Below, piece by piece: positions 11,613 through 60,544 of a DNA stretch of 64,000 nucleotides (within the stretch, counting starts at the first letter, position 1; each line of letters begins with the position of its first letter). A program made the position numbers and the translations under genes. Source of the DNA: a virus; IMG/VR virus record IMGVR_UViG_3300042520_001372; one strand, 5' to 3'. The notes below the pieces were generated by a model. It did no database searches. It saw only the letters and a program-made list of their open reading frames with translations, and was not told the origin of the DNA.

Positions 11613-11626
11613 ATCTTATAAATAGG

Positions 11627-25134: not shown

Positions 25135-26166
25135 TTAGTAAACTTTTCCTAAATCATCAGTCTTAGCTCGATTAGAAGCTTCCTGTATCTTTGATCTCTT
25201 ACCCCAGGCTGAAAGATGCTTATCGTTTTCGATAGTTTCAATTTGGGTCTGTAGAGGGGGTTTCTGTTCTCCGGTGTAAACTTCGTAAGGTTCTTTTTCT
25301 TCATCTTCGATTTTCCAATCATCCTCCTCTTCTTTAACTAAGGGTGCGTCTAACCATTCCTTATCTTCTTCAGTTAATTTAGGAGTAGGCTGTTCTTCCT
25401 TCTTTGTAAAAGCAAAGTTAGCAGCAATCACCAAAGCAATCGCCAATGGATCAAATACAAAAATAATAACCAGTAAGAACCAGTTGATGATTTTATCCAT
25501 GGGCTGTCCTGTAAGCCCGGAAAGGTATTTCAAAGGACCTAACTCAGAAGAAACTGTTGAGTTTGTTTTAACTTCTAAAATTTTATTCTCTAATGAGAAG
25601 ATAGAATCATTAACTCTATCGAGTTTACTGGAAAGTTTCTCGTCTGAATTAGATGCTGATTCGATTTGTTTGATGCTTGCATTATTGGACCTAACTACTA
25701 AGTTACCTTTTTTGTCTGTGAATTGAGTTGTTGATCCTTTAGATAAACTCTCTTTTAATCCGGCTAAAGATTGTTTCTCTTTGTAGATTCCTTCTTGGGT
25801 CTGCTGATAAAGTTTCTTCTTAGTTTCAAGAGCAAGGATCTGCTGGTCGACAATGGTTGCTTTATTTGCTGTCTCTTGATAGGCTGATGATAAGAATCCG
25901 TAAATACCTGCCGAGGTGATCAGGATTAACACAAAGGCTGCAATTGTTAGATAGGTTCTTAGTACCTTATTTAATTCAGACCAGTATTGATATAGGAGTG
26001 AAGCAGTAACTAGTTTAGCTACTTCTAGTGATCCAGCCATGATTCCTACTGCCAAAGATGCTCCGGCAAATAATTTCATTATACCGGACACAGAATAGAA
26101 TGCAGCTGAAGCTGAAACTGCTAGAGCTGAGAATGCAATAATATATGGAAACAGTTTTTTACCCAT
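25135..26166 (-). CDS. Membrane protein: 3 TM + coiled coil + TM + acidic tail
   Basis: Hydrophobic segments, GIYGFLS, VFDPLA motifs. Confidence 0.75.
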   Translation of the reverse strand: MGKKLFPYIIAFSALAVSASAAFYSVSGIMKLFAGASLAVGIMAGSLEVAKLVTASLLYQYWSELNKVLRTYLTIAAFVLILITSAGIYGFLSSAYQETANKATIVDQQILALETKKKLYQQTQEGIYKEKQSLAGLKESLSKGSTTQFTDKKGNLVVRSNNASIKQIESASNSDEKLSSKLDRVNDSIFSLENKILEVKTNSTVSSELGPLKYLSGLTGQPMDKIINWFLLVIIFVFDPLAIALVIAANFAFTKKEEQPTPKLTEEDKEWLDAPLVKEEEDDWKIEDEEKEPYEVYTGEQKPPLQTQIETIENDKHLSAWGKRSKIQEASNRAKTDDLGKVY

Positions 26167-26605: not shown

Positions 26606-26986
26606 TTATCCTATAAAATCATCTAAGTGGTCTGGAATGCCGTCACCGTCAACGTCGCATATTTCAACGTATCCGAATGCTTTCATAAAACTAGCCACTC
26701 TCTCTTTTAGATCATTGTCTGTATCTTCAAACCAATCTTCTTTTAGATTGTCATGATCTAAGATAGCAATCAGTGCGCTATAAATTTTATCAACATTCTC
26801 AACCAGGTAGATGTCGGATGCCATAAAGTCTAAGCTAAAAGCATAATCATCAATCTGTGGAATTTTAGTTAAAGAATCAATTTTACCAATCTTCTTTTCT
26901 TTTAAAGGCATTTCTTTGCCGAACTTATGAACGTATTCGCCCACGTAGATGTAACCCTGTCCTTCTGGTAATGTAAATTCGCTCAT
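26606..26986 (-). CDS. T5orf172/GIY-YIG-like protein with C-terminal DxDGDG Ca-binding motif
   Basis: GYIYVG...KIG...DWF; DVDGDGIPD. Confidence 0.45.
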   Translation of the reverse strand: MSEFTLPEGQGYIYVGEYVHKFGKEMPLKEKKIGKIDSLTKIPQIDDYAFSLDFMASDIYLVENVDKIYSALIAILDHDNLKEDWFEDTDNDLKERVASFMKAFGYVEICDVDGDGIPDHLDDFIG

Positions 26987-28117: not shown

Positions 28118-28567
28118 TCAGAACTTTTTGGAAGCATCCTTAAGACTGGCTTGTAATGCTTTAGAAAATGCTTTTTTATTCAAAGGAACCTCACCATTTT
28201 CAACATTTAAGAACATTGCAAAGACGAAAGTGCGTCTTTCTCCTATTCCTTCCCAAGTTCCTGTATTAAAGGCTACTGAAGTTTTAACAATATAATCCTT
28301 TCTTAACCATTGAATGCCCATAATATTAAGCATTTGCTGTGGAGAATAAACAGAATCGATATAAACAGTGACTGTAAACCCTGAAGAATCTTTAGGAGAG
28401 TATCCTTTCTGTTCAATAATATATTCCTCAACTGTTTCTTTTACCCCGAAGGTAATGTCTCTTCCTCCAACCTTTTCAATTTTAGTATTGTTAACAACAT
28501 CAACATGGAAGAAGGTTGAATCGGCAGGAGCCAAAGCAAATAAAACGGTAGCAAGTAGGTTTAACAT
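28118..28567 (-). CDS. Secreted alpha/beta protein (CsgG/LptE-like topology suspected)
   Basis: Signal peptide; strand-helix-strands-helix pattern; TATTTATA just upstream. Confidence 0.55.
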   Translation of the reverse strand: MLNLLATVLFALAPADSTFFHVDVVNNTKIEKVGGRDITFGVKETVEEYIIEQKGYSPKDSSGFTVTVYIDSVYSPQQMLNIMGIQWLRKDYIVKTSVAFNTGTWEGIGERRTFVFAMFLNVENGEVPLNKKAFSKALQASLKDASKKF

Positions 28568-28579
28568 CTGTTATAAATA

Positions 28580-29785
28580 TTAGTAAGTTACTGCCCCGGA
28601 GTATCCTGGTGCAATGATATAGAGGTTAAGTGTTCCTCCTGATGTTAAAGTGGAGGTAGTATGGTTAGTTACTCCCGGATAAGTTGCTCTTAGGTTTGTT
28701 GTACCTGCAGCAATAGCATTGTACTGAGCAGTTGTAAAGATTCTCACATCAGGAGCTATTCTCCATTTAGAAAACCTACCAGCCTTCCTTGCAGCAACGT
28801 AGTATTTGTCTGCAACAGAAATTATTCCATCGTCATTTACATCAAACATATGAAATGATAAACCGGTTCTAGCAGTCTTATTTAAAACAGTATTTGAAAC
28901 AGCTTGAATGTCTGCTGTAGTATAGGCCTGTATTCTGGTTGGAGCGTCTACTTGAATTGTAAATTGATCACCGGCTGCTGTAGTTCTTGAAAAAGAATAA
29001 TATCCTGATGAGTTTGTATTTGCGGTAGCATCTAATGAAGTGGAGGATGTTGTAGTACTTGAGGATGTATTTATCTCCCAGCTAGTACCCGAGAAGGAAC
29101 CTGAAGTAACTAATGTGCTTGCTAACCAAGCACTACCTGTTGATATACCCATCACCTCCTGGTTAGAACCATCTGCAGTAAATGTTCTCCAAACCACTAT
29201 CTGCTTTGAAGCTTGATTTTTAATGAAATATAAATCCCAGGTGTAGTTTACTCCTGTCTGATTGTATTTGCAATTACCTTCGTATCTTACTCTAAACACG
29301 TCTCCGTAAGTTGCATCTGTGTAACTTTCAGTTGAAACATAAGAAACGTTGTTGTCTGTAGAGCTATTATCTACCGAACCTATATGAATGGTTGGTTGAT
29401 TAGGACTAGTAGCATTTCCATTATATCCTGAGCTTGAGCTTGTTCCAAAACAAAACCAAGAGTTAGCATTTACGTGACCTGATGAATAAGTAGTACCTGC
29501 ATAAGAAGGACTAAACCCAGAAGGAAAAGTAACAGCAACAGATGTTTCATCTGTATTAGCACTAGAAAAAAGCACTGAGGTTCCTCTTCCTCTATCAGAA
29601 GGAATACCTGATGTTATTTTAGCTAGAGTACCTGATTTAGTAGTAGCACCTGCTGTACTTTTATAAAGTTTTACCGGAACATTATTTGCTCCAGATCCGT
29701 TTGCGTTGTAGAGGTAACCTGAGTAGGTAAATTGACCCATCAGGGAGTTAGTTAAAAAAAATAGTATAGCTATTAACCACCTCAT
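28580..29785 (-). CDS. Secreted protein: Ig/CnaB-like domain with nidogen-like insert + dockerin-like module
   Basis: Signal peptide; TNSSGYYSF; TTADIQ...FDVNDDGIISVAD; FPSGFSPSYAGTTY...VNANSWFCFG. Confidence 0.7.
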   Translation of the reverse strand: MRWLIAILFFLTNSLMGQFTYSGYLYNANGSGANNVPVKLYKSTAGATTKSGTLAKITSGIPSDRGRGTSVLFSSANTDETSVAVTFPSGFSPSYAGTTYSSGHVNANSWFCFGTSSSSGYNGNATSPNQPTIHIGSVDNSSTDNNVSYVSTESYTDATYGDVFRVRYEGNCKYNQTGVNYTWDLYFIKNQASKQIVVWRTFTADGSNQEVMGISTGSAWLASTLVTSGSFSGTSWEINTSSSTTTSSTSLDATANTNSSGYYSFSRTTAAGDQFTIQVDAPTRIQAYTTADIQAVSNTVLNKTARTGLSFHMFDVNDDGIISVADKYYVAARKAGRFSKWRIAPDVRIFTTAQYNAIAAGTTNLRATYPGVTNHTTSTLTSGGTLNLYIIAPGYSGAVTY

Positions 29786-31167
29786 ATTTTCATTTTTGCT
29801 CCCATTAGTATTTGGTAGTTTAGGATATCCTTACCGGCAATATAAGTACCTCCGGCAGTAATTCCAACTCCAAACGTCTTAGTTAGTCTGTAATTAAGGT
29901 TTAGGAATGGAATAACGATCGGTTTAGATTCAAAGAGAGACTCTGTGTAGTACTTGGAATACGGTGAATACACACCGGCCATGATCACTGTAGCATCTAA
30001 ACTCTTAGTTACTTTTCCTTTATACATAAAACCACCAATAACGATAGTTGAAATCATTTCTTCTCCGAACATCTTACCGTAAGAACCAGCTGCACCGTAA
30101 AGTGCTGTAAAGTTTTTAACTGAGTTTACTCTAACAAATAGAGCTGTATTTGTAATTGATTTAGGTAAAATACTTAACCCATCTGAAATTACATTAATGT
30201 GTTTGTTTCCTTTCTTGTTTGCTCCTATCCAAGATCTAACTACTGAGAAGTTTCCAATCTTTGCATTGACCATGTAGTCAGCTGAGAAGCCTATTGAGGC
30301 TGATCCATCTCCTTTTACTTTGGTGAATGAAGCTGTTCCTCTTGCATCCTGTGCTCCATTAGCTTTAGTCTGAACTCCAACAATATCTCCTGTCATTAGG
30401 ATTGCAGGCTTGGCCGTCTCGACCTTGCCTTTACCGGCTGCCTTAGCCGAACTACTGGATTGTGATTTTTGTGTTTCGGTCTTTTGCTCTTCTACTTTCT
30501 CAGCAGAAGGTTCTTCAGTTTTTGGCTCTTCTGTCTTATTGCCTTCCCCACTGCCTGAACCAGACCCCGAACCTGAACCGCTACCGGAACCCGAACCGGA
30601 CGAACCTGACCCCGACGAGCCGTTCCCGCTGCCGCTTCCAGTGCCTGAACCAGGATCACTGCCATTACCGCTAGGAGGAGGAGGATTTCCATCTTCTGAT
30701 TTTTCGTTTGACTGGTTGTTTTCATTTTTTGAATCAACACTTCCCGAACCAGATGAGGTTGTACCGCCAACGTTATTACCTACTCCTGCACCAGCAGAGC
30801 TACCAACGGATGAAAAATCTAAATTCGAAATTGAATTTAGGTTCATAACGTTGTTAACAATGTTTGAAACCGTATTTGTTTGAGTGGTAGTTGTGGTGGT
30901 TGTAACTGCCCCTTGACAAGGTGATGTTGTTTTGTACTGGTTATAAATATTATTCATCCATAAATCAAAAGTACCATCTTGCAGTTCTAGGTAGCTGAAT
31001 GCTTTTACTTGTCCGTAGTATGCAATTACAATCGGAGTAGACATATCAGCATTAATAAATTTGATCTCTTTAGTGCAAGGATCAACGTACGAATACATAA
31101 AGGACTGCCCGTTTAGAGACAGTCCTATCATGAATAAAAAAAATAATATTTTAGTTTTTAAAGACAC
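29782..31167 (-). CDS. Putative outer-membrane beta-barrel protein with Gly/Ser linker
   Basis: Signal peptide, (GS)n linker, C-terminal alternating amphipathic strands ending YQILMGAKMKI. Confidence 0.65.
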   Translation of the reverse strand: MSLKTKILFFLFMIGLSLNGQSFMYSYVDPCTKEIKFINADMSTPIVIAYYGQVKAFSYLELQDGTFDLWMNNIYNQYKTTSPCQGAVTTTTTTTQTNTVSNIVNNVMNLNSISNLDFSSVGSSAGAGVGNNVGGTTSSGSGSVDSKNENNQSNEKSEDGNPPPPSGNGSDPGSGTGSGSGNGSSGSGSSGSGSGSGSGSGSGSGSGEGNKTEEPKTEEPSAEKVEEQKTETQKSQSSSSAKAAGKGKVETAKPAILMTGDIVGVQTKANGAQDARGTASFTKVKGDGSASIGFSADYMVNAKIGNFSVVRSWIGANKKGNKHINVISDGLSILPKSITNTALFVRVNSVKNFTALYGAAGSYGKMFGEEMISTIVIGGFMYKGKVTKSLDATVIMAGVYSPYSKYYTESLFESKPIVIPFLNLNYRLTKTFGVGITAGGTYIAGKDILNYQILMGAKMKI

Positions 31168-31837
31168 CGTTCCTGATTAAGCTTTCGATTACTTTGGTGG
31201 TAGCAGTCTCTAAAGACTTTCTAGTTGCTTTACCCACAGTACTTTGTGAAAACTTCATATCAAGAGATTTCAAGAACGATTCTCCTACTTTTGTTGACTC
31301 TCCTTCTCCAGATCCGATGTAGACCTGTCCCGTTGTAGCATCAACGAACCTAACTTGGAGACGTATGAAAGTAGTAACAACAACTTTGCTTTTACCCTTT
31401 TCAACAGTCTCATCTTCATCAACAGCAAAATCGGCCACAGTAACATAAACAAAGTAACGAGCAGCTTTAATCTTACCCTTTCCATCAATGGGCTCTTCGA
31501 AGACTCCTTTTTTAGAAGCTTTGAATTGGGTAACCATTCTTTCTTTGATTTCAGCTTTCTCTTCGGTGAATATAAATCTTCTTGTTTCATCTAAATAATC
31601 TAGTACTGATTCGGCAAATCCTAACCCAACGTTCTTCTCTTGAAGGTCTGGGTACAAAGCTAAAACTTTAGTCATATCAACGTTAATTACCTGGACAGCA
31701 TATTTCAAGCTATCTGTGTAATTTGATACTGAAGAGATATCTTTAGTTTCAATAACGTCTTGTTCGGTTGTAGTTTTCATTGAACCACATCCAATCATAA
31801 TAACCAATAAAAAAGCAACAAGGATATTTCTTACCAT
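31151..31837 (-). CDS. CsgG/HfaB-like outer-membrane lipoprotein
   Basis: Lipobox-like MIGC; RFIFTEE, GKIKAARYFV.V.V.DF, LQVRFVDATTGQV pattern. Confidence 0.75.
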   Translation of the reverse strand: MVRNILVAFLLVIMIGCGSMKTTTEQDVIETKDISSVSNYTDSLKYAVQVINVDMTKVLALYPDLQEKNVGLGFAESVLDYLDETRRFIFTEEKAEIKERMVTQFKASKKGVFEEPIDGKGKIKAARYFVYVTVADFAVDEDETVEKGKSKVVVTTFIRLQVRFVDATTGQVYIGSGEGESTKVGESFLKSLDMKFSQSTVGKATRKSLETATTKVIESLIRNGVFKN

Positions 31838-32142
31838 GGATCTTCTTCTTTAGGTTCAGGCTTGGTAGCAGGAGCAGCAACAGGTTTTTCAACTACACGC
31901 TCTTTAATGATTGTGTTTGTTCCACCGCTTGACTGCTTCTGTTGATTTGTGTTGTTGTTCTCTAGATTCACGTTAATAACAGGAGCAGGACCTTGTTCTG
32001 TTTTAGCTTCTTCTTTAGGCTCTTCGCCACCGCCTAAGTGGGTTGCAAACCAGGCACCGCCGGCTGTAACTGCTGTAGTGATAGCACCAATAATTGCTTT
32101 TTTGGTTGCTGACATTACGCCTTCTTCTTTTTCTTCTGACAT
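31831..32142 (-). CDS. Single-TM membrane protein with low-complexity tail
   Basis: AIIGAITTAVTAGGAWF; Pro/Glu/Asn-rich C-terminus. Confidence 0.7.
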   Translation of the reverse strand: MSEEKEEGVMSATKKAIIGAITTAVTAGGAWFATHLGGGEEPKEEAKTEQGPAPVINVNLENNNTNQQKQSSGGTNTIIKERVVEKPVAAPATKPEPKEEDPW

Positions 32143-32159
32143 TTTATTTAGTTTTTATT

Positions 32160-32522
32160 TTAATCCTCTGTTGTACTTGATAAAGATACTCCGTCTTCTT
32201 CATCTGTTTTTTGAATTAACATTTTATCTCTATCTTCTGAATTGAACCAATAATCGATTACTTTGTTTAAGTTACCGACAAAGGCACCTAATAAGATCAA
32301 CAACATTTCTTTCCAGTCGTCAGCTATCTGTACTCCAACGAATACTGCTGAGTTAATTCCTACAATGATTAAAGTAAATAACCCTAAGATTACTAATGTA
32401 ATTTTCCATCTATTGTTCTGCATTTCCTGCAGCATGTTGTAGAATCGATTAGTATCGGATACTTTAGCAGCAGGTTCTGTTGTTGAACCCACTGCTTTTT
32501 TTATTGTTTCTTTAATACTCAT
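32160..32522 (-). CDS. Two-TM membrane protein
   Basis: ITLVILGLFTLIIVGI and MLLILLGAFVG; IDYWF. Confidence 0.7.
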   Translation of the reverse strand: MSIKETIKKAVGSTTEPAAKVSDTNRFYNMLQEMQNNRWKITLVILGLFTLIIVGINSAVFVGVQIADDWKEMLLILLGAFVGNLNKVIDYWFNSEDRDKMLIQKTDEEDGVSLSSTTED

Positions 32523-34411
32523 TTGTTTATAATTATTTTTGAAGTTGAAATTTTAGTATCTGTTTTAACTGATAAGAAATACAAACCATCTTCTAACTTA
32601 GTTAAGTTAACAACGTATTTGTAGTCTCCTGCAGGCATTTTGGTGTTTAACACCTCCATTACCTTTCTGCCAATCAGATCGCTAACCATTACTTCGGTTT
32701 GTGATTCTTGTTCTACTCTGAATTGAACATTAATTATTCCATCGTTTGGATTTGGAAATACTAATAAGTCTTTAAGTTCGTCAAGCTTGATTGCTTTCTT
32801 AACTCTCCTTACTTCAATCACTCCCATTGCTGGTGTAATGTTCATATCCCTTGCATCATTACCTCCCACGTATTTAGGTCCAGTCCAGATAGCTGCGGAA
32901 CCCCATTCATCTTGAGGCTTCTTAGCGATGAACTGAATGTTAAATACATTCTCACCGTCATTTACTAATTGATTTCCTTTTAAGTCAGCTGCACCAAATG
33001 CAACTACTCCGTCAGATGGGTTAGTGTATGAAGTCCAGTTCATCATCTTCTCAGTTAAATCGATTTTCTTAAACTCTAATAATGCTGTATCATACTTTAA
33101 TTCTAATTGAATTGCTCCTAATTGTTTTCCGTCGGTAAGCATTCTTACAGGAACGTTAACTAAGTTACCTTCGTCAACTTTAATTTTAGGCATGTTAACT
33201 TCAATAGTTTCAGTTACATTGTCGTACTGAACTGTGTTATCGATAATGTAGTTTTTAGCATTTGCTGAGTTGATAATCTTAATAGGAGTCAAACGAGCCA
33301 TTTTAAATCCTGTGGAGTTTGCATCTCCTTTAACAGCTACATAGTAAGTGATAGAATCTCTTCCATCTACCGAGTATGTGAAGTTATTAACTGTTGAGTA
33401 AGTAGAAGTCAAGTTAGAGCTTGCTCCGTTGATTGCATTATATTCGGCAACTGTAAAGAACATTACATCCTTCTTAGAGTTAGGCCAAGCAGAGAATCTA
33501 CCTGCTAATCTTCCATATACTGAATAAACGTCTGCAATGCTAATTAAACCATCAGTTCCGTTAACGTCCATTGTGTAGTAATCAAATCCTGCAGGAGTGT
33601 ATTGACCTAAGATAGATTGATTGATCTTCTGTGCATCTGCAGTAGAGAATACGTTACCGGGAGTCATTGTATCTCCTTTAACGACAATTCTAACATCCCA
33701 GTAAGTAGTATCTAAGAATTTTCTAAATACTGTAACTCCATTAGAGTTAGTCTTCTGTACTGCAATTTCAGTCCAGGTAGAAGAACTTTTAGCTCTTTTC
33801 TCTAAACTAACTGTTAAGTTTTTAGCATCTGTACCTGTAACGTTCTTAAACTTAGTAGCAAATCTTAATACCTTCTGATTGAAACGACCACCGTAAGAGT
33901 AAACTACCAAGGTAGTATCATTACCCCAGTTAGTAGCAGCTCTGTTAGAGAATGACTTAACACCTGATACTTTTAAAGTCTTAATAGAATCTAAAGTGTT
34001 CCATGTAGACTCACCAGCATGGGTAAAAGTTAAATCAAAGGTTGCTCCATTAGAGTAGTTAAAAGTTGAGTTAGTACCTGTGTAAGCTAAAGTAACTGTT
34101 AAGAACCCTTGAGTATTACTATCAACATACTGTAAGTATTGATCGGTAGCAGAGATCTTTAAGGTAGGTACAACTGCAGTAAATGCAGTATTATCGTAGA
34201 ATACACGAAACTGCACACCTGTAATTTTCTCAGAAGTAGAAGTGTTGTAGAAATGCAAAGGGGCAACAGTCTGTCCGACAGTAGTGGTTGCTACTTGATA
34301 ACCAGAATCAATTACCACCCAGTGCCCTGTTCCAGGTGATGTTGAAGATGATTGTGCCGATACTCCGAAAACGGCCAATGCCGTCAGAAGGAATGCGATG
34401 AGTTTTTTCAT
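32519..34411 (-). CDS. T9SS-secreted scaffold: cohesin-like + CnaB/dockerin-like + cohesin-like + type A CTD
   Basis: Signal peptide; ITGVQFRVFYDNT; MDVNGTDGLISIADV; VNVPVRM...LGAIQLELKYDT; VFPNP...D.IGRKV...GLYFL...KII. Confidence 0.82.
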   Translation of the reverse strand: MKKLIAFLLTALAVFGVSAQSSSTSPGTGHWVVIDSGYQVATTTVGQTVAPLHFYNTSTSEKITGVQFRVFYDNTAFTAVVPTLKISATDQYLQYVDSNTQGFLTVTLAYTGTNSTFNYSNGATFDLTFTHAGESTWNTLDSIKTLKVSGVKSFSNRAATNWGNDTTLVVYSYGGRFNQKVLRFATKFKNVTGTDAKNLTVSLEKRAKSSSTWTEIAVQKTNSNGVTVFRKFLDTTYWDVRIVVKGDTMTPGNVFSTADAQKINQSILGQYTPAGFDYYTMDVNGTDGLISIADVYSVYGRLAGRFSAWPNSKKDVMFFTVAEYNAINGASSNLTSTYSTVNNFTYSVDGRDSITYYVAVKGDANSTGFKMARLTPIKIINSANAKNYIIDNTVQYDNVTETIEVNMPKIKVDEGNLVNVPVRMLTDGKQLGAIQLELKYDTALLEFKKIDLTEKMMNWTSYTNPSDGVVAFGAADLKGNQLVNDGENVFNIQFIAKKPQDEWGSAAIWTGPKYVGGNDARDMNITPAMGVIEVRRVKKAIKLDELKDLLVFPNPNDGIINVQFRVEQESQTEVMVSDLIGRKVMEVLNTKMPAGDYKYVVNLTKLEDGLYFLSVKTDTKISTSKIIINK

Positions 34412-34872
34412 TTTTGTATATTAATTAGTTGTTTTATTGCATGTTGTTTTAACCAAGGTTCAGGATTAGTAAGCTTATCAATGAAGGTAAGCTCATACCT
34501 GTAACACCATGCCTCCTCTTGTTCAGGAGTAATGATGTACCCTTTTTGTAAAACATGCAAATGTAAACTCTCATGAACCAACACTACAGCGAGGTTGTTA
34601 ATTGAATTTAACTTTACATCTTTAACAGCAACTAGGATTGTTCCTTTGTTTCCATAACTTCCATCATTAGATGAAAACCCTGAAGACCAGAACTCAACTC
34701 TATTACAAACACTATCAATCAGCTGATATTTTTCAATATCGGTCTTTTGAATTAATGTTAACGCTGAATCTATTTTCTTATCCCATCCGTCACCGGCTTT
34801 ATCTATCCTAATCTGGCTAGAAGAAAAACTGGTTATCAAAGAAGTTAAGGCAAACAGAAGCAGTGCTTTCAT
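34408..34872 (-). CDS. Secreted zinc metallopeptidase-like protein
   Basis: Signal peptide; LVHESLH followed by EE..CY..E. Confidence 0.7.
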   Translation of the reverse strand: MKALLLFALTSLITSFSSSQIRIDKAGDGWDKKIDSALTLIQKTDIEKYQLIDSVCNRVEFWSSGFSSNDGSYGNKGTILVAVKDVKLNSINNLAVVLVHESLHLHVLQKGYIITPEQEEAWCYRYELTFIDKLTNPEPWLKQHAIKQLINIQK

Positions 34873-34876
34873 TTCA

Positions 34877-34884
34877 TATAAATA
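34877..34884 (-). promoter_or_regulatory. Late-type promoter motif TATTTATA heading the envelope operon
   Basis: Same octamer precedes structural genes. Confidence 0.65.
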
Positions 34885-34885
34885 G

Positions 34886-34912
34886 AAAAAGGTCTGCGTT
34901 AACAGACCCTTT
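34886..34912 (-). terminator. Intrinsic terminator after RNR
   Basis: Minus: GGTCTG-ttaacg-CAGACC-TTTTT. Confidence 0.75.
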
Positions 34913-34933
34913 CTTAAATTTTTTTGATTAAGA

Positions 34934-42889: not shown

Positions 42890-42968
42890 GTTTTGTTTTA
42901 GTTATAAATATAATCTAAAGATAAGAAAAAAGCCCCTGCAAAGCAAGGGCTCTTAAGTGTTTATTTTT
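42840..42968 (-). repeat. Cassette junction unit: terminator + promoters + leader-coding DNA
   Basis: Near-identical to ~43473-43601 and related to ~43825-43940. Confidence 0.9.
42926..42952 (-). terminator. GAGCCCTTG-family terminator overlapping TTG-N20-TATCTTTA promoter
   Basis: Minus: GAGCCCTTGCtttGCAGGGGC-TTTTTT-ctTATCTTTAgattaTATTTATA. Confidence 0.85.
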
Positions 42969-60488: not shown

Positions 60489-60544
60489 TATATTTTAGTT
60501 TGTTAGATAGTTCTAATATAAATAGTAATTAGACCTTCAAAAAG

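Follow-up and report, generated by a model that had tools for sequence, protein, structure and literature searches.

A candidate operon for lectin display on the infected cell in an Immutovirus-like Flavobacterium phage

The operon in its phage genome

We analysed a stretch of 64,000 nucleotides (hereafter the window) from the IMG/VR virus record IMGVR_UViG_3300042520_001372, and in particular an operon of eight minus-strand open reading frames (ORFs) that runs from position 34872 to position 28118. Its products, named here w154, w630, w120, w103, w228, w461, w401 and w149 in gene order, include a protein with two cohesins and a type IX secretion system (T9SS) sorting domain, a second secreted protein with a variable tip, a lipoprotein related to CsgG and a C-terminal outer-membrane beta-barrel (Table 1). 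The genes are separated by 0–20 nt or overlap slightly. By inspection of the N-termini, all eight products carry a signal-peptide-like leader, a lipobox or a transmembrane segment: cleavable signal-peptide-like leaders are present in w154, w630, w461, w401 and w149, a lipobox (IGC) in w228, transmembrane helices in w120 and a weaker one in w103. A preliminary description, made from the sequence of the window, had already reported eight co-oriented and tightly packed genes with such export signals behind a TATTTATA motif, and we find both the ORFs and the box as it described them.

The window is part of a complete genome of 166,276 bp with direct terminal repeats, and its minus strand carries all the long ORFs. 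The phage is an Immutovirus-like Flavobacterium myophage, and among cultured phages it is closest to Flavobacterium phage vB_FspM_immuto (Immutovirus; hereafter immuto), with a tail sheath identity of 52%. A PHROG scan identified the tail sheath, head-tail adaptor, DNA polymerase, DnaB-like helicase, recombinase and exonucleases, as well as ribonucleotide reductase (RNR), ThyX, QueE, GroEL and an endolysin. The presence of the sheath, DNA polymerase, RNR, helicase and endolysin genes, together with the direct terminal repeats, shows that the operon is encoded by a phage, as had been proposed. For the eight operon genes PHROGs gave nothing informative, and a megablast of the operon against isolate phages returned zero matches.

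Table 1. Features of the operon and its upstream edge (window positions; residue numbers refer to the protein named).
Feature	Position	Strand	Description
Terminator-like hairpin	34886..34913	-	3' of the RNR gene, at the upstream edge of the operon; 12-pair stem, then T run
TATTTATA box	34877..34884	-	4 nt ahead of the w154 ATG; generic promoter-like motif
w154	34408..34872	-	Secreted, 154 aa; invariant HESxH and downstream EE..CY.YE; putative minimal zincin
w630	32519..34411	-	Signal peptide, cohesin N, prealbumin-like sandwich, dockerin-like module, cohesin C, type A C-terminal domain
w630 cohesin N, residues 42-150	33962..34288	-	Pfam Cohesin E 2.4e-4, 21.8 bits, scanned alone
w630 CarboxypepD_reg/transthyretin-like sandwich and dockerin-like helix-loop-helix, residues 176-310	33482..33886	-	PDB transthyretin-like E 1e-3; HHalign
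w630 cohesin C, residues 404-514	32870..33202	-	Pfam Cohesin E 1.4e-11, 45.2 bits
w630 T9SS type A sorting domain, residues 551-629	32525..32761	-	PF18962 E 1.6e-12; TIGR04183 E 8e-11; PDB 8glk/8glj C-terminal domains
w120	32160..32522	-	Small membrane protein with two transmembrane helices
w103	31831..32142	-	N-terminal membrane anchor, Pro/Glu/Lys-rich spacer, invariant C-terminal PW
w228	31151..31837	-	Lipoprotein, CsgG/TolB_N-like superfamily, without CsgG-type transmembrane hairpins
w461	29782..31167	-	Signal peptide, 65-aa two-Cys N-domain, ~150-aa disordered linker, C-terminal 12-stranded outer-membrane barrel
w461 beta-barrel	~29785-30405	-	C-terminal 222 aa
w401	28580..29785	-	Sec-exported, without C-terminal sorting domain; prealbumin-like sandwich interrupted by variable tip, then dockerin-like module
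w401 variable tip	~29051-29650	-	Interrupts the prealbumin-like sandwich
w401 dockerin-like module	~28766-28924	-	Homology to the w630 module
w149	28118..28567	-	Small secreted protein; shortened homolog of the second CsgG-like paralog (B) of a bacterial module

The encoded proteins

Scanned as a whole, w630 matches Pfam Cohesin (PF00963) with an E-value of 7.8e-14 (52.5 bits) over two stretches, a strong one at residues 404-510 and a weaker N-terminal one which, taken alone, scores slightly below the gathering score of 24.1 bits. A profile search of the PDB with w630 did not reach the solved cohesins. Between the two cohesins lies the prealbumin-like sandwich, followed by a helix-loop-helix with a DxNxDG loop. 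The C-terminal domain (CTD) scores above the cut-off of both sorting-domain models (48 bits against 27, and 41.7 against 23), 18 homologs all keep its PNP and GxY motifs, and it is the sole T9SS CTD in the phage genome. These matches bear out the earlier assignment of w630 as a T9SS-CTD protein with two cohesins, and from the type A CTD we predict that the host T9SS should export w630 and attach it to the cell surface.

With a profile of the w630 module we retrieved chromosomal Bacteroidota proteins longer than 1,100 aa, in which Pfam scores the matched segment as CarboxypepD_reg and Dockerin_1, with Cohesin and Por_Secre_tail after it. With 28.8, 23.6 and 42.9 bits, Dockerin_1 exceeds its cut-off of 22.9 bits in three of these bacterial proteins, which belong to L109, L110 and L111, and HHalign pairs the w630 module with the bacterial CarboxypepD_reg and Dockerin_1 segments at 96.3% (E 1.9e-9). 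At the level of sequence, residues 176-630 of w630 are collinear with the C-terminal tail of these giant, host-type T9SS proteins (HYR/Big_1 adhesin-like, L107-L112), and a K.GD.N motif ahead of the cohesin is also shared. In contrast to the giant adhesins, w630 has another cohesin where these have the adhesin body, and the phage adds a separate, CTD-less, lectin-tipped protein on the same dockerin base. In immuto the tail is divided between two genes, gp014 containing cohesin N and the dockerin without a CTD, and gp015 containing cohesin C and the CTD, which implies that the two halves associate non-covalently. Since the matching tail is found within single polypeptides of Bacteroidota, we do not retain the description of w630 as a cellulosome-type scaffold.

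The C-terminal 150 aa of w401 are homologous to residues 202-347 of w630 (BLASTP E 2e-19, 36% identity), so that w401 does carry the same module as w630 and, as noted before, no CTD. The second repeat of the dockerin-like module is canonical, with DVNDDGIISVAD forming a DxNxDG loop and a helix following it. Through the bacterial Dockerin_1 segments the module is predicted, by transitive homology, to be a dockerin. The same w401 leader and base bear four types of tip in 74 typed loci, namely a C-type lectin (29 loci; Lectin_C E 8e-16), the type of the window (24 loci), GEVED (16 loci; E 6e-13) and PA14 (5 loci; E 7e-8), and an additional type is found in the divergent locus L099. The immuto protein gp013 is the C-type lectin form. 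In two loci (L002 and L003) w228, w461 and w149 are 97–100% identical to those of the window and the w401 tips are different, which indicates that the tip has been exchanged by recombination. The tips are predicted to bind glycans; a PDB search with the w401 profile gave no match. We also considered the tip as a decoy copy of the phage receptor-binding protein, a reading that was rejected because there is no tip paralog in the 166-kb genome. A complex prediction with both cohesins and full-length w401 gave a score of 0.01, which is no answer and counts neither for nor against binding.

The closest match of w228 is CsgG, both by profile (E 1e-4 for the w228 homologs against the PDB) and by structure. 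The AlphaFold2 model of w228 (pLDDT 85) has a folded domain of 210 aa, for which CsgG is the best Foldseek match (E 1e-6) and gives a VIA Z-score of 11.8, compared with 9.6 for PelC and 8.1 for LptE; the fold neighbours after CsgG are CT253, PelC, FlgT and LptE. Pfam CsgG (PF03783) is matched by 15 of the 39 w228 homologs. Like CsgG, w228 is predicted to be an outer-membrane lipoprotein. However, w228 lacks the two amphipathic transmembrane hairpins that in CsgG form the 36-strand barrel: hairpin 1 aligns to a short and highly charged segment, AVDEDETVEKGKSKVVVTT, and nothing in w228 corresponds to hairpin 2. The evidence therefore does not support a CsgG-type pore, and of the CsgG-like pore proposed earlier it is the superfamily fold that stands. 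We found no operon neighbour that matches the curli families (CsgE/F, CsgA/B) in Pfam or NCBIfam, nor were curlin-like repeats seen. Its resemblance to the periplasmic or outer-membrane-associated relatives PelC, LptE, FlgT and LpoB is no smaller than that to a pore. One metagenome relative of w228 has been annotated as CsgG by JGI. In BFVD, only one other CsgG-annotated viral protein (A0A6J5RM04, 394 aa, from an uncultured Caudovirales) resembles the w228 model, as does one unnamed protein, and CsgG-fold proteins appear to be rare in phages.

In w461, the linker between the N-domain and the barrel is rich in Thr and Gly/Ser. The C-terminal 222 aa are modelled by AlphaFold2 as a 12-strand barrel (pLDDT 81.5), for which all Foldseek and VIA matches are outer-membrane barrels (VIA Z-scores of 15.8 for CymA, 14.6 for PelB, 14.2 for PgaA and 12.7 for BcsC). 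The 12 strands, the signal peptide and Z-scores of up to 15.8 identify an outer-membrane beta-barrel, in agreement with the preliminary description. The layout of N-domain, long linker and 12-strand barrel is also compatible with a type Va autotransporter; no linker helix is predicted, and the autotransporter barrels AIDA-I and Hbp, with a Z-score of 11, rank below many other barrels.

Bacterial relatives of w228 are found in Cloacimonadota, KSB1, Fibrobacterota, Ignavibacteriales, Rhodothermales, Spirochaetia, Nitrospinota and other groups, where operons encode a CsgG-like lipoprotein (A), a protein of ~410 aa (fam2) whose C-terminus is barrel-like and which matches nothing in Pfam, and a second CsgG-like protein (B), paralogous to A. 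Examples among the loci L083-L097 are L084:787-3591 and L096:6953-9523, and the module often adjoins genes for large secreted caspase-like (Peptidase_C14) or transglutaminase-like proteins. HHalign relates w149 to paralog B (95.7%, E 1e-8), and the Atlas leads for w149 are Lipoprotein_16, DUF4410 and LptE. The similarity of w461 to the fam2 C-termini is weak (HHalign 51%, E 1.5e-4), and we did not accept it by itself; w461 is taken as the fam2 counterpart because the order A-fam2-B is common to L084, L096, immuto (gp017-019) and the window (w228-w461-w149). These three phage genes would thus be a version of the bacterial three-gene outer-membrane module, probably captured from bacteria.

The remaining products are small. 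In w154 the HESxH (HExxH) motif and Glu residues further downstream do not vary among 20 homologs, which makes the peptidase that had been suggested plausible as a small zincin, although no family could be assigned: neither Pfam nor NCBIfam gave a match, and a single-sequence search of the PDB was empty. The Atlas language-model leads for w154 are DUF6647 and eCIS_core (score 0.93). The protein is absent from some related loci (for example L017 and L064), and w120, highly conserved where present, is absent from about a quarter of them and from immuto, leaving w630, w103, w228, w461, w401 and w149 as the core of the operon. In the divergent locus L098 the w120 homolog (L098:5902-6471) has a C-terminal extension with Ca-loop-like repeats (DGDG...DHDGDGKIDEY). 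The stop codon of w103 overlaps the start of w228. A spanin reading of this pair was set aside by inspection, w103 being disordered and Pro-rich rather than coiled-coil, and w228 being a folded domain that is unlipidated in immuto; a coiled-coil predictor or spanin profile was not applied.

Distribution and surroundings of the operon

In order to describe the distribution of the operon, we used an IMG/VR set of 125 confirmed stretches and 80 retained loci. Synteny is kept in all 80 retained loci and in gp013-gp019 of immuto, which corroborates the proposed conservation among phages. Among 50,697 isolate phage records, homologs of w228 or w630 occur only in the four immuto records. In lake metagenomes the clade is very common, with 743 protein variants of w228 and the 125 stretches in IMG/VR. 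Within the host family, a w228 relative was found in 3 of 301 genomes, and the one inspected (G001) lies on a phage-like contig (L098), so the operon does not belong to the usual chromosomal loci of that family. A recent, single capture of a host locus was rejected in view of the deep conservation in the phage clade and the rarity in host-family genomes. In a related phage (L140; helicase 77% and RNR 76% identical) the operon is absent, and no more than 90 nt separate the RNR gene from the holin-like gene, after which comes the endolysin (L140:3311-6398). This empty site, with RNR abutting the lysis genes, indicates that the operon is a discrete insert. A divergent version of the whole operon (w630 43% and w228 53% identical) is present in L099, a 254-kb contig of a Bacteroidetes metagenome-assembled genome that also has a 1020-aa tail-sheath-like gene and is probably a jumbo phage binned into that assembly. 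No paper that we found describes the operon.

The hairpin that separates the operon from the RNR gene is of the rho-independent type. The TATTTATA motif occurs at 21 sites in the window, against 8 expected, and 20 of the 21 are on the coding strand; a second site in the operon, at 28572-28579, belongs to w149. As the sites precede replication, structural and lysis genes alike, the motif is no marker of late genes or of timing, and we dropped the view that the operon is expressed late. Elsewhere in the window, TATTTATA sites lie a few nt ahead of start codons, for example at 60517-60524, 42903-42910 and 11617-11624, a placement that points to near-leaderless transcripts, with the motif as a generic -7-like box.

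Downstream, the operon directly adjoins a lysis cassette consisting of a small transmembrane protein, the endolysin (PG_binding_1 and GH19; phrog_181, E 1.5e-64) and a holin-like protein. A small protein encoded between the endolysin and the holin-like gene (26606-26986, minus strand) ends in DVDGDGIPDHLDD, a Ca-binding-loop-like motif. The lysis region is closed by a 343-aa protein (25135-26166, minus strand) with no family match, which has several N-terminal transmembrane helices, a long, helical-looking region rich in Lys, Glu and Ser, and another transmembrane helix. It may be a lysis accessory protein or a spanin substitute, in a phylum with poorly known spanins.

Lectin display and alternative explanations

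The reading that we favour, and to which we give about even chances, is that of a discrete accessory operon whose products remodel the envelope of the infected cell by displaying glycan-binding lectins on it. The host T9SS would export w630 and attach it to the cell surface, where the dockerin of the CTD-less w401 could dock on the spare cohesin of the anchored protein, leaving the lectin facing outward. The numbers of cohesins and dockerins are matched, two of each, fused in the window and distributed over three proteins in immuto. More speculatively, the w228/w461 set, linked to the inner membrane through w103 and w120, might form an outer-membrane passage or platform serving the CTD-less partners, in the manner of PelC/PelB or LptE/LptD and not of a CsgG pore; alternatively, w401 could ride out bound to w630. 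The likely benefit would be the binding of variable surface or environmental glycans. Masking of a glycan receptor might block superinfection and the loss of progeny on debris, and the infected cell might also become adherent. Decoration of the virion was set aside as a reading, since every product has an export signal. A bolder form of the proposal, which we regard as doubtful, is a multi-part surface organelle that a virulent phage builds on its dying host cell, made of the T9SS cohesin anchor, a captured outer-membrane translocon of the phage's own and dockerin-plugged, swappable lectins, the lectin cassette evolving like a receptor-binding protein and either masking receptors or gluing cells to hosts or particles.

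Several observations weigh against lectin display. Direct matches to Pfam Dockerin_1 (PF00404) are below threshold (4 of 13 members, best E 0.014), and in the first repeat of the module the helix STADAQKINQSILG is kept and the Ca loop is degenerate, leaving one canonical loop only; of the dockerin assignment in the preliminary description, it is thus the homology to bacterial Dockerin_1 segments that holds, and not a direct family match. Because the bacterial homologs have dockerin and cohesin in one polypeptide, the two could form a structural stalk instead of a docking pair, and the pair in w630 may be partly intramolecular. The short charged hairpin and the missing second hairpin of w228 hold across its whole family, including the bacterial members, and the outer-membrane route for w401 is a conjecture. 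In addition, many relatives do without w154 and w120, in the divergent L098 w228 is present but both the barrel and the lectin protein are missing, and the bacterial relatives of the w228-w461-w149 module are mostly not located beside T9SS cargo (only L083 is), so the two halves of the operon may be functionally independent.

This last possibility leads to an alternative that we consider rather unlikely, in which two independent modules share one insertion site: the T9SS lectin display, and a separate outer-membrane device formed by w103-w228-w461-w149 (with or without w120), for instance a channel or envelope stabiliser acting on permeability, lysis timing or exclusion, which would take no part in lectin export. 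The bacterial homologs of w228, the barrel and w149, which lack cohesin and dockerin genes and lie beside the caspase-like or transglutaminase-like proteins, argue for such a separation, as do the own TATTTATA box of w149, the position of the operon next to the lysis cassette, and the occurrence of the module in Spirochaetia, Nitrospinota and Thermodesulfobacteriota. These three groups are not known to have a T9SS. On the other hand, the two halves co-occur in immuto, the main clade and L099 despite deep divergence, w401 is inserted in the window between the barrel and w149, and no function can be named for the outer-membrane set by itself.

It is quite improbable, in our estimate, that the products build no cell-surface structure and instead leave the cell in soluble form, on lysis or inside vesicles, as lectins and enzymes acting outside it, for example by coating debris or neighbouring cells or by conditioning the matrix. 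A lytic phage sets periplasmic content free anyway, an outer-membrane route for CTD-less lectins is hypothetical and T9SS cargo can also be released, but such release would leave the CTD anchor, the barrel/lipoprotein set, the membrane tethers and the matched cohesin and dockerin counts unexplained. We attach very little weight to a reading of w228 as a true CsgG-type pore that exports w401 or some amyloid-like substrate, with the aid of w149 and w154 in the role of CsgE/F-like accessories. The rank of CsgG among the sequence and structure matches, the JGI label and the lipobox of w228 speak for it; besides the hairpins, however, the immuto ortholog lacks the lipobox Cys, domains of the w228 type are fused elsewhere to periplasmic caspases and Ser/Thr kinase sensors (P0174, P0249), w149 is a CsgG-clan domain and neither CsgE nor CsgF, and curlin-like repeats were not seen.

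The lectin display that we favour has partial parallels in known systems. Cellulosome-type and noncellulosomal cohesin-dockerin assemblies (Peer et al. 2009, as cited in PMC6487960) likewise place cohesins on the component that is anchored and a dockerin-like EF-hand module, here predicted, on the cargo. In contrast to the cellulosome, the phage set has no enzymes, its cargo is a lectin, its anchor is T9SS rather than SLH or sortase, and its dockerin-like module has one canonical Ca loop. PelC-PelB and LptE-LptD combine an outer-membrane lipoprotein of CsgG/LptE-like fold with a beta-barrel, as do w228 and w461. The PelBC entry 9h80 is among the fold matches of both phage proteins, and PelB aligns to the w461 barrel with a root-mean-square deviation of 3.1 (Z 14.6), Z-scores not being specific among barrels. 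However, the w461 barrel has 12 strands rather than 16 or 26 and no tetratricopeptide-repeat or jellyroll periplasmic domain, and the operon contains no polysaccharide synthase or Lpt genes.

Phages are known to place lipoproteins and barrels that serve exclusion or fitness in the outer membrane of the host during infection, such as Llp of T5 and Bor and Lom of lambda, and receptor masking is likewise a candidate benefit of the operon described here. Those are single small proteins, whereas this is a six-to-eight-gene assembly that would use the host T9SS and has recombining lectin tips. Single-protein additions by phages to the host envelope being known, a conserved assembly of this size would represent a new level of "virocell" surface engineering, in which the new aspects are the co-option of the Bacteroidota-specific T9SS, the use of cohesin-dockerin modules outside the cellulosome and the recombination of lectin tips between near-identical genomes. 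The bacterial three-gene outer-membrane module (CsgG-like A, barrel and CsgG-like B) is uncharacterised and worth studying in itself. The operon is directly testable in the cultured relative immuto, which grows on Flavobacterium sp. LMO8. Given how common these phages are in lake metagenomes, any effects on aggregation, superinfection and particle attachment could matter for carbon turnover in freshwater.

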